A stretch of DNA of 64,000 nt, from NCBI RefSeq assembly GCF_058153355.1, contig NZ_CM177019.1, one strand, 5' to 3'. A program made the position numbers and the translations under genes. The notes below the pieces were generated by a model that was not told the DNA's origin, made no database searches, and worked only from the letters and a program-made list of their open reading frames with translations. Below are positions 39,701-43,181 of this stretch, in pieces. How positions within the stretch are numbered: the first letter of the stretch is position 1; every line of letters starts with the position of its first letter.

Positions 39701-39973
39701 ATGTCTCATACAATCCGTGATAAACAGAAACTGAAAGCGCGTGCCAGTAAGATTCAGGGCCAGGTCGTGGCGCTCAAGAAAATGCTCGACGAGCCGCACG
39801 AATGCGCAGCTGTTCTACAACAGATTGCTGCTATCCGTGGCGCGGTAAACGGCCTGATGCGCGAAGTGATTAAGGGGCATCTGACGGAACACATCGTTCA
39901 CCAGGGGGATGAGCTAAAACGTGAAGAAGATCTGGATGTCGTTCTGAAGGTGCTGGATTCTTATATCAAATGA
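39701..39973 (+). CDS. rcnR: Ni/Co-responsive repressor RcnR (YohL)
   Basis: 90 aa, [22 protein letters not shown]... Confidence 0.9.
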
Positions 39974-40082
39974 AAGTGCCTAATATGGCCGTAGTTGAGG
40001 CAATAAATAGAGGGACAAGTGACGTTAAGCTGAATTAGAGTAAATGGCGTGAGGACACACGCCATTCGAGGATATAGTTTGA

Positions 40083-40397
40083 TTAATTTTCGAAAAATTG
40101 CTTCACAGCCCAGCCACCATGACCACCTGGAGTTATGAATGAAACAAAACCTTTGTCATCGACGCTCTGGATTTCTACTGTCATTGATTCATCTAACACG
40201 CGACATTTATTGGATGTAATGAGACTCAGCATAGCCTGTTGGTCATTGTCCTGGATGTAACTGATCATCTCGTAAAAGTCAGTTAACTTTTTACAGTTAA
40301 ATGTACCTTCTTTAAGTGTTGCGCTGTCTCCGTGACTTAGTGCGAATGCATTTGGCATCATTGCCACAAAGATGACGGTAACGAGTAGTTTTTTCAT
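40083..40397 (-). CDS. Hypothetical small secreted protein (104 aa, two Cys in mature part)
   Basis: Signal peptide MKKLLVTVIFVAMMPNAFA; low-GC island; no family recognised. Confidence 0.55.
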   Translation of the reverse strand: MKKLLVTVIFVAMMPNAFALSHGDSATLKEGTFNCKKLTDFYEMISYIQDNDQQAMLSLITSNKCRVLDESMTVEIQSVDDKGFVSFITPGGHGGWAVKQFFEN

Positions 40398-40406
40398 TGT
40401 AGCCTC

Positions 40407-40754
40407 TTATAATTCAGAACATTCACTGATGTTGTAAGTGCCTTTTCTACCATCATCGTTTACGAGATGTAGCACGAAGATGATGGGATTGGCATCAATG
40501 AAAGATACAGAGACGTTCCCGCTTTCGGTGCTATACATCTTTGCAATCTGTTTTTCACCAATATATGAAAGATCCCAACTCACTCCGTTCAAGCTAAAAT
40601 GCATCTGTTTGCCGTCAATATCGATGGAGGATTGTGCCGTAACGGTTTTCCCATTGCTGCCAATTTGACCCTGCTGAAGAGCATCACATTTATAGGAGCT
40701 TGCATAAGTAAATAGAGGTAGTAGCAGAAGTGCAGCAAAAATTTTACTCTTCAT
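40407..40754 (-). CDS. Hypothetical small secreted protein (115 aa, Cys near both ends of mature part)
   Basis: Signal peptide MKSKIFAALLLLPLFTYA; 9 bp upstream of the 104-aa ORF on the same strand. Confidence 0.55.
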   Translation of the reverse strand: MKSKIFAALLLLPLFTYASSYKCDALQQGQIGSNGKTVTAQSSIDIDGKQMHFSLNGVSWDLSYIGEKQIAKMYSTESGNVSVSFIDANPIIFVLHLVNDDGRKGTYNISECSEL

Positions 40755-41807
40755 ATTTTCCCTTTGCTTGGATTTGAGTTACCTATTTTGGGGTAGTCAT
40801 TATAAAACTATTAATTAGTAAAATGAACAAGTTTTCATTTGTTTAGTAATGGTATTGTTTAGGTTTGAAATTATTACGTACTTTCATAGCAATAGGTTGG
40901 ATAAACAGCAGTTCAGAGAACAAGTTGCACTATCTACATACTTTCCCGCTTTCCATTGTATGTTAGGTAATAGATAGCCTTTGCCCGTAAGACTAAAAAT
41001 ATTAGAAATGACTCATTCGAATACCTTCTATTCACCTTAATATAGGTTTGATTATTGTAATCGTTTAATGTGTCTTATGGATTTTTTCCTACTTTTCATT
41101 TGCATAATATAGGGGGCACAGCATGCTCTTGAAATTAATTATTAAGATATTTAAATTTTACAGCACACAACTACTTTTCGTTGTCTTATGTGTTGAACGT
41201 ACTTCGAGTATAGGTAGGGTTGTATATATATTGCGTGGGTAGAGTTAGAATAGAGGAGGCATCATTTATAGAATATTCAAGAACGTTAACCTGTGATCAA
41301 TAAATAAAAATATCAAATGGTGTTCAAACATATTTTTCTATGAAAAATCCAGCCATCTATGATGAATTTTTAGATCCATTTTAATTAAAGTATGATTATG
41401 AACCAATATTTAGCCAAGAATGGTGGTATAGCGCGTATCCAATGACACCGGAAAACGCATCTATGAAGTCCTTGTTTATCTCTATAAGAGGAAATCAACA
41501 CTAATAAAATATAGTGATGTAACACATCGAGCAGGTTGCTCTGATGCTGGTCTTCAACTGTGGCTTAAACAGCTATCAAACTTCGGTGTTATTGAGATGA
41601 AAGAATTATCTTTCTCAACTTTCAATCTCAAAAAGCTAGAGGAAATAGACCTTAATTATTCCACTCTCTAAACTTATCTCTTTATTTAAAGTAAAAATGA
41701 AAATATTATGGTATCAGCTACGTGGTGGTAACTGGTGTTTATGATCATAGGTACACATATACAGGGAACCCTGGAAAACAAAAGTAATATATTGATGATT
41801 TCGTTTG

Positions 41808-42047
41808 TTATAACTTCGTGGTATCAAGTCCGGCGGCTTTGAGTCGCTCGGTAAGATTTCTCATTTTGCTGAACTCTGTACCAAAGCTGGCTTTAAGTCC
41901 TACACCTTCGCAAAACTCTTTTGCCGTGACGTTTTTAAGATGGTCAGCGTATTTGATCATCTGGAGGTGCATTTCCATCGTTTGGCTATTTCGTGGTGCG
42001 CTGCTAATGGCTTGCTTAATGTTCTCGTAGATCTGGGTTTCTGTCAT
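41808..42047 (-). CDS. Hypothetical 79-aa protein, possible helix-turn-helix
   Basis: AGGTGAG Shine-Dalgarno ~8 nt upstream; HTH call is by eye only. Confidence 0.4.
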   Translation of the reverse strand: MTETQIYENIKQAISSAPRNSQTMEMHLQMIKYADHLKNVTAKEFCEGVGLKASFGTEFSKMRNLTERLKAAGLDTTKL

Positions 42048-42271
42048 TTTTTATCTCACCTATCAAATTTAGATAAATAATATAAATTAGATAAATAAGA
42101 TAATCAATAGTTTTTACCATATGAATAATGGATGTGGATTGTTTCTTTTTCATTTCTGATATGGAGTACAAAATGGGGTCACAATGAAGAAGCGATGAAT
42201 GGAGGCGAGCTTGCATCTGCAAGCCTCTTCCCCTAATCTGGCACAAAATATAGAGATTCAACCAAACGACT

Positions 42272-42392
42272 CGGGGTGCCCTTCTGCGTGAAGGCTGAGA
42301 AATACCCGTATCACCTGATCTGGATAATGCCAGCGTAGGGAAGTCACGGACCACCAGGTCATTGCTTCTTCACGTTATGGCAGGAGCAAACT
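42272..42392 (+). ncRNA. TPP (thiamine pyrophosphate) riboswitch in the thiM leader
   Basis: THI-box core ...ggggtgcccttctgcgtgaaggctgagaaatacccgtatcacctgatctggataatgccagcgtagggaa... directly upstream of thiM ATG. Confidence 0.9.
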
Positions 42393-43181
42393 ATGCAAGT
42401 CGACCTGCTGAGTTCCGCGCAATCTGCGCACGCGTTACACCTTTTTCACCAACATTCCCCTCTTGTGCATTGCATGACCAATGATGTGGTGCAAACCTTT
42501 ACTGCCAATACCTTGCTGGCGCTCGGTGCATCGCCAGCGATGGTTATCGAAACCGAAGAAGCCAGTCAGTTTGCGGCTATCGCCAGTGCCTTGCTAATTA
42601 ACGTCGGCACGCAGACGCAGCCACGCGCACAGGCGATGCGTGCTGCCGTTGAACAGGCAACACACTCTCAAACCCCCTGGACGCTTGATCCGGTCGCGGT
42701 TGGCGCACTCGATTATCGTCGCCGTTTTTGTCATGAACTTTTATCTTTTAAACCGGCAGCGATACGTGGTAATGCTTCGGAAATCATGGCATTAGCTGGC
42801 GTTGCTAATGGTGGACGGGGAGTGGACACCACTGACGCCGCAGCTAATGCGATACCCGCTGCACAAACACTGGCACGGGAAACTGGCGCAATCGTCGTGG
42901 TCACAGGCGAGGTGGATTATGTTACCGATGGTCGTCGCACCGTTGGCATTCACGGCGGCAATCCGTTAATGACCAAAGTGGTAGGAACTGGCTGTGCATT
43001 ATCGGCAGTTGTCACTGCCTGTTGCGCATTACCAGGCGATATGCTGGAAAATATCGCATCTGCCTGTCACTGGATGAAACAAGCCGGAGAACGCGCCGTC
43101 GCCAGAAGTGAAGGGCCTGGCAGTTTTGTTCCCCATTTTCTTGATGCGCTCTGGCAATTGACGAAGGAGGTGCAGGCATGA
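42393..43181 (+). CDS. thiM: Hydroxyethylthiazole kinase
   Basis: 262 aa ORF following the TPP riboswitch. Confidence 0.9.

Follow-up and report, generated by a model that had tools for sequence, protein, structure and literature searches.

A 9-bp-phased repeat pair upstream of an orphan rptR homologue beside thiM: a probable operator of an RptR-family repressor

The window considered here is the whole stretch of DNA analysed, 64,000 nucleotides long (RefSeq assembly GCF_058153355.1, contig NZ_CM177019.1). Its gene order, an Escherichia coli one, is rcnA, rcnR, an islet, the TPP riboswitch, thiM, thiD, yegX, and yegW. The islet (Table 1), which in O157:H7 Sakai is ECs_2908-2910, is present over at least 80% of its length in 339 of 5426 complete E. 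coli genomes. At its thiM-proximal end, on the minus strand, lies a gene for a 79-aa protein, referred to below as rptR. Farther along the same strand are genes for two small signal-peptide proteins (115 and 104 aa) without a significant family match, and NCBIfam and PADLOC gave no match for the three islet proteins. The sole terminator-like site on the minus strand lies past both signal-peptide genes, and no promoter-like site was found on that strand between these genes and rptR. On the plus strand, the islet holds truncated remnants of two genes of SCU-102 (45% and 85% amino acid identity), where both are intact and convergent with rptR. No restriction or defence gene was found downstream of rptR in the window. 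A second rptR was sought on the chromosome of the near-identical genome NZ_CP098223.1 and not found; the gene occupies one place in that record.

The 79-aa protein matches Pfam HTH_73 (PF24718) with an E value of 6.5e-31 (cutoff 27 bits). Searched as a profile of 18 homologues, it matches a single structure in the PDB, 9R2Z (E 5.3e-43), to which it is 71% identical (54 of 76 residues, BLASTP). Aligned with 9R2Z, it has all of the DNA-contact residues T57-E58-F59-S60-K61 and the dimer residues E25, L65, R68, L69, A72, and L74; V24 is replaced by M24. The AF2 model (pLDDT 94.1) consists of four helices (residues 3-16, 19-32, 42-49, and 53-71) and superimposes on 9r2z_B with a TM score of 0.94 and an rmsd of 1.0 A; the next Foldseek match has an E value above 1. 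Homology, predicted fold, and contact residues all agree with the RptR family, and on this sequence and model evidence we regard the 79-aa protein as an RptR-family member. The allele, WP_032303346.1, differs by one residue from WP_000141034.1 and likewise by one from WP_000141032.1.

RptR (RMS-proximal transcriptional regulator) is a small protein that represses phage-defence islands (Zhang et al., NAR 2025, PMC12255303; PDB 9R2Z). In EPEC, it is encoded by the first gene of a Type I RM/DarTG2 (RRDM) island, and its dimeric product represses its own promoter via cooperative binding, with a Hill coefficient of 3.4 and a KD of ~185 nM, as documented by EMSA, GFP reporters, and an S60G mutant (PMC12255303). 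The EPEC operator consists of three 9-bp direct repeats TTTAGCTAA overlapping the -10 element. The recognised core, TAGCTA, may have T in place of G5 and A in place of C6, so that four boxes are predicted: TAGCTA, TAGATA, TATCTA, and TATATA. TAGCTA and point mutants were assayed, and the tolerance of TATCTA was deduced from C6A data, AlphaFold 3 models, and symmetry (PMC12255303). Two boxes are necessary and sufficient. In the DR1/s/3 arrangement, in which one non-binding 9-bp unit separates two boxes, occupancy is full and repression is at wild-type level, a dimer being held by protein contacts; this ‘box / non-box / box’ layout occurs in 9 of 21 natural two-box promoters (PMC12255303). Among the DNA-contact residues T57-K61, E58 and K61 are invariant. 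The published table of 117 homologues includes WP_000141034.1 (the O157 allele, at the same locus as here), WP_000141032.1 (SCU-102), and WP_001318412.1 (REL606), and therefore the family, the operator, and the clade are already in the literature (PMC12255303).

Upstream of rptR, the plus strand at 42060-42109 reads ctatcaaatt tagataaata atataaatta gataaataag ataatcaata. Direct reading places aaatttagataaataa at 42065-42080 and aaattagataaataa at 42084-42098, and a repeat search returns an 18-nt unit present twice (42066-42083 and 42084-42101), with 16 of 18 positions identical (89%) and a start-to-start distance of 18. The first-pass annotation had recorded tandem direct repeats at this place, together with their distances from the start of the 79-aa ORF and from the thiM riboswitch. 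Both the repeats and the distances are confirmed: the pair spans the interval from 18 to 51 nt before the rptR start codon (ATG at 42047, minus strand), and 164 nt separate it from the riboswitch. The unit size, taken as 18 or 12, has to be corrected to 9 bp. The 18-nt unit resolves into two 9-nt units, which accounts for the 18-bp period, and the minus strand reads as an array of ATTATCTTA, TTTATCTAA, TTTATATTA, and TTTATCTAA; the recognised core would be a 6-bp palindrome-type box, here TATCTA. Each 12-mer noticed earlier is one 9-bp box unit plus three bases from the preceding unit.

An exact 12-mer, TTAGATAAATAA, is found at 42069 and again at 42087; no other 12-mer recurs within 9-40 nt across the 64-kb window. 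Dinucleotide shuffles of the whole window contain on average 0.20 12-mer repeats at such distances; when the local AT-rich stretch (211 nt, 32% GC) is shuffled, one arises in only 0.12% of cases. With the pattern TA[GT][CA]TA, which takes its definition of a box from the RptR paper (PMC12255303), the TATCTA pair, 18 bp apart, is the sole box pair with 9- or 18-bp spacing in 64 kb; 0.03 are expected per shuffled window, and 0.28% of local shuffles give any.

Table 1. Features of the islet and of the region upstream of rptR (positions in the window)
Feature	Position	Strand	Basis and remarks
Islet between rcnR and thiM TPP riboswitch	39972..42258	.	blastn vs MG1655; replaces 90 bp of E. coli K-12
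Terminator-like site	40060-40047	-	
Small signal-peptide protein, 104 aa	40083-40397	-	
Small signal-peptide protein, 115 aa	40407-40754	-	
Truncated remnants of two SCU-102 genes	41241-41381 and 41441-41638	+	
rptR homologue, 79 aa	41808..42047	-	ORF list; Pfam HTH_73; identical to RefSeq WP_032303346.1 in E. coli Z0117EC0005
Shine-Dalgarno-like GGTGAG	42055..42060	-	Direct reading; 7 nt before ATG; GTGAG or ATGAG kept in enterobacterial relatives
Proximal predicted RptR box TTTATCTAA, core TATCTA 42070-42075	42069..42077	-	Pattern search; first repeat of the first-pass annotation
Middle 9-bp unit TTTATATTA, contains -10 hexamer TATATT (42084-42079)	42078..42086	-	Promoter scan
Distal predicted RptR box TTTATCTAA, core TATCTA 42088-42093, in -35/-10 spacer	42087..42095	-	Pattern search; second repeat of the first-pass annotation
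Degenerate fourth unit ATTATCTTA, core TATCTT, overlaps -35 hexamer	42096..42104	-	Sequence comparison
-35-like hexamer TTGATT, 17 nt upstream of TATATT	42102..42107	-	Promoter scan
TGTACYCCAT-like motifs, repeated	~42150-42195	-	
thiM promoter, islet-borne	~42200-42261		
TPP riboswitch	42262-42358		Rfam, 71 bits

The promoter region reads TTGATTATCTTATTTATCTAATTTATATTATTTATCTAAATTTGATAGGTGAGATAAAAAATG on the minus strand, and the unit that follows the proximal box on that strand, ATTTGATAG, is a non-box. The TTGATT/TATATT combination is the sole sigma-70-like site on either strand of 41600-42450, a consensus match of a kind that shuffles give 2.2 times per 850 nt. As it lies on the minus strand, one repeat falls within its -35/-10 spacer and the other just past the -10, over the expected transcription start. 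The two boxes, both of the predicted set and in 9-bp phase upstream of their own gene, overlap core elements and bracket the -10 of the putative promoter, which is the layout published as DR1/s/3. The middle unit, whose core TATATT is one base away from a TATATA box, is identical across all enterobacterial relatives compared, and it corresponds to the non-binding middle unit of that arrangement (PMC12255303). The proximal box is invariant in Sakai, SCU-102, and pX14-3; the fourth unit, degenerate here, has the complete TATCTA core in REL606, pX14-3, Enterobacter, and Erwinia.

Conservation was surveyed in 80 loci drawn from one-genome-per-species GTDB contigs, in which the 130 nt upstream of each gene were aligned; 74 were usable. 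At least one box is present within this distance in all 74 and at least two in 69, the loci being phylogenetically related. Successive boxes are exactly 9 bp apart in 103 of 121 pairs and 18 bp apart in 9, and box density is 2.64 per 130 nt upstream versus a background of 0.14 elsewhere in the loci. Although synonymous sites have diverged to saturation, boxes and 9-bp phase are retained across a range from Enterobacterales to Vibrio, Shewanella, and Photorhabdus. The repeats, for which the first-pass annotation had asked whether homologous islets retain them, are therefore conserved, and the survey independently reproduces that of PMC12255303.

The perfect identity of the two repeats is confined to few genomes. 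In Sakai, REL606, pX14-3-NDM, Enterobacter, Erwinia, and Atlantibacter, the distal unit is ATTAGCTAA (core TAGCTA), from which that of the window lineage differs by A1>T and G5>T, both toward the sequence of the proximal unit. An 86-nt promoter identical to the window's occurs in 9 of 417 E. coli records. Judged by these comparisons, the perfect 12-mer repeat is a derived minority allele. The changes could have arisen from a templated event between the repeats, which, as there are two in all, is conjecture; G5>T is predicted to be tolerated by RptR (PMC12255303).

We consider it very probable (roughly 85%) that the two repeats are the operator of the RptR-family repressor, situated in the promoter of its own gene and serving negative autoregulation. 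An operator for an autoregulating small DNA-binding protein had been one of two readings suggested by the first-pass annotation, and membership in the RptR family, the published 9-bp box type, and the conserved phased boxes all speak for it. Dimers of the 79-aa protein would bind both 9-bp boxes, on either side of the predicted -10 hexamer, and a further dimer would be held over the middle unit by protein-protein contacts, by analogy with published ‘box / non-box / box’ promoters. Bound protein would then cover the promoter between the -35/-10 spacer and the transcription start and exclude RNA polymerase. In most relatives, the rptR promoter would also drive a downstream restriction or other defence operon. 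We infer that the TATCTA boxes are bound by the window allele and that the predicted promoter is real. With defence cargo gone from the window, the module would be an orphan, a repressor that regulates itself within an integrative island that has decayed.

That decay raises the alternative of a relic, in which the sites are inherited RptR boxes and the module is decaying in a cargo-less islet with no regulatory role left. The missing defence gene, in place of which only the truncated remnants are found downstream, the missing integrase end of the island, and the degenerate fourth unit (TATCTT) would all be expected of a relic, as would the SCU-102 allele, which has lost the distal box; with one canonical box left there, the operator may be drifting in the orphan clade. 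We nevertheless judge a relic unlikely. The gene is intact, its dN/dS is ~0.03 against alleles at dS 0.16-1.4, and it is matched over at least 80% in 548 E. coli genomes. Its promoter-operator (44 nt running from the -35 through the proximal box) shows 4-5 differences in 44 positions from alleles with dS of 0.8-1.4, being far better conserved than synonymous sites, and the two substitutions of the window lineage, instead of abolishing the box, leave a variant that is predicted to bind. The few promoter-operator differences and the low dN/dS argue that gene and operator are both under constraint.

It is highly improbable that the repeats are iterons, or sites for H-NS, IHF, or an island recombinase, instead of sites for the 79-aa protein. 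The boxes travel with rptR whatever lies upstream, the upstream neighbours varying by locus, and they match the experimentally defined RptR box (PMC12255303), even though AT-rich repeats in horizontally acquired DNA near an island end would suit such proteins and the tyrosine recombinase of pX14-3-NDM has its stop codon inside the array. The iteron reading, the other suggestion of the first-pass annotation, is rejected: the islet is chromosomal, with no replication initiator or origin and with no rep-like ORF or family match between rcnR and thiM. An origin by chance in low-complexity sequence, or by recent duplication within this AT-rich stretch, with no sequence-specific function, is scarcely tenable and was also rejected, because a comparable repeat or box pair arises in only 0.12-0.28% of local shuffles and the phased boxes persist as far as Vibrio, Shewanella, and Photorhabdus, notwithstanding the 32% GC of the stretch, the rarity of the perfect 12-mer, and the possibly templated origin of the two substitutions that make the distal unit equal to the proximal one.

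An operator for self-repression leaves room for the speculative, and in our view doubtful, idea that the orphan rptR, which is under strong purifying selection despite the missing cargo, acts beyond its own gene. It might be a trans-acting silencer of incoming RptR-controlled restriction islands, by analogy with an immunity repressor, or it might exert read-through control over the two co-oriented secreted-protein genes at 40754-40083, as no terminator-like site was found before 40060.

The proposed arrangement has parallels in other small regulators. Tandem short palindromic boxes bound cooperatively by adjacent small dimers are found in the met-box arrays of MetJ (8 bp, compared with 9 bp here), but MetJ is a ribbon-helix-helix protein that needs a co-repressor, and the likeness to RptR is in layout only. 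KorA of IncP plasmids binds GTTTAGCTAAAC, which includes the RptR box; no KorA structure is among the listed Foldseek matches or the PDB sequence matches to the 79-aa protein. In Foldseek, RptR has no PDB homologue other than 9R2Z. The controller (C) proteins of Type II RM systems are likewise small autoregulatory DNA-binders with repeated operator boxes over their own promoter, timing the expression of restriction genes (PMC12255303). However, they are lambda-cI-like HTH dimers that recognise longer palindromic C-boxes across two major grooves and both activate and repress, whereas RptR recognises a 6-bp core; the 79-aa protein has no Pfam HTH_3/Xre match, and no C-protein structure is among the Foldseek matches listed. 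BrxR and CapW (PMC9122601) share with RptR the position of the regulator gene as the first in diverse defence islands and the repression of the island promoter, but RptR, a single 9-kDa domain, has no sequence relationship to these wHTH-WYL proteins, which have several domains, one of them a sensor.

The closest counterpart is EPEC RptR itself. Both are 79-aa four-helix proteins, 71% identical and sharing DNA-contact and dimer residues, and both have 9-bp phased boxes in their own promoters that overlap core promoter elements. The EPEC operator has TAGCTA three times, whereas that of the window has TATCTA twice, with the -10 in the middle non-box unit. Unlike EPEC rptR, the window gene has neither hsdMSR nor darTG2 downstream and is an orphan in a decayed islet beside the thiM riboswitch. 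No Type I RM or other defence operon directly follows it in the same orientation. A Type I RMS association is reported for 54 of 117 RptR homologues (PMC12255303), and such a neighbourhood is therefore a frequent association and not a strict criterion.

Across 64 GTDB loci, the next co-oriented gene after rptR encodes HsdM in 32. Other co-oriented partners encoded directly downstream are an OLD-type ATPase with a UvrD helicase (Gabija-like; loci L023, L028, and L031), an N6_N4 methylase with ResIII (Type III RM, Mod/Res; L067, L068, and L079), SNF2-helicase sets (L073, L081, and L082), and AAA_23/AAA_21 with Schlafen AlbA_2 (L010, L015, L037, and L039). In Salmonella (L085-L089, 2670-7911), an rptR/Type I RM island preceded by three integrase-like genes and a 158-aa gene adjoins ssb and uvrA, an arrangement that may resemble the three-recombinase ‘GInt’ islands. 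Membership of rptR in an integrase module of this Salmonella type was considered and rejected, as upstream neighbours vary and the downstream defence genes are the conserved partners. The same Salmonella-like integrase trio, rptR, and Type I RM island occur in a contig labelled as an uncultured Collinsella MAG (L013), which is probably mis-binned. In E. coli B REL606 (L003:3511-3942), Enterobacter, and Erwinia (L005 and L006), rptR is followed after 46 nt by a gene for a DUF6998 protein. This protein matches PADLOC mREase_II (Type II methyl-directed restriction enzyme) with an E value of 6e-100, and the partner class is absent from the main text of PMC12255303.

On plasmid pX14-3-NDM (L004:5295-6551), the tyrosine recombinase gene that ends inside the rptR box array has a BREX system nearby. 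Homology between the window and this plasmid stops precisely at the -35 hexamer, which would fit joint movement of promoter and rptR as one unit. Just upstream of the rptR -35, the TGTACYCCAT-like motifs are kept in the E. coli, Enterobacter, Erwinia, and Atlantibacter islands (L003, L005, L006, and L007).

Judging by the remnants of SCU-102 genes, the islet is what decay has left of a larger island. Atlantibacter carries a second, 73-nt copy of window positions 42268-42340 (L007:10965-11037), 5 kb beyond rptR and beside a truncated tyrosine recombinase homologue. In Erwinia, an 80-nt riboswitch fragment (L006:5725-5804) lies 84 nt from a full-length tyrosine recombinase (L006:3956-5641; Pfam Phage_integrase, E 1.9e-8). 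The duplicated fragment comprises 73-80 nt of the 5' part of the riboswitch (window 42261-42340) and, in Atlantibacter, is at the far end of the island. From these sequences, the thiM TPP riboswitch appears to be an integration site of rptR islands. A second riboswitch or att-like copy was sought in the window and not found; the single copy is consistent with loss of the integrase end of its island. As the 90 bp that separate rcnR from the riboswitch in K-12 have given way to the islet, the thiM promoter here is islet-borne; it is divergent from the rptR promoter, at a distance of ~130 bp.

The observation is real and already explained: the repeat is best read as another case of the RptR operator published in 2025. 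What the window adds is modest. It offers a two-box promoter of natural origin (TATCTA/TATCTA, ‘box / non-box / box’ layout), which is a possible test case for the published binding model, and evidence that a copy of RptR without restriction cargo is still under purifying selection. Its context also suggests that the thiM TPP riboswitch is where such islands integrate, bringing with them a replacement thiM promoter.
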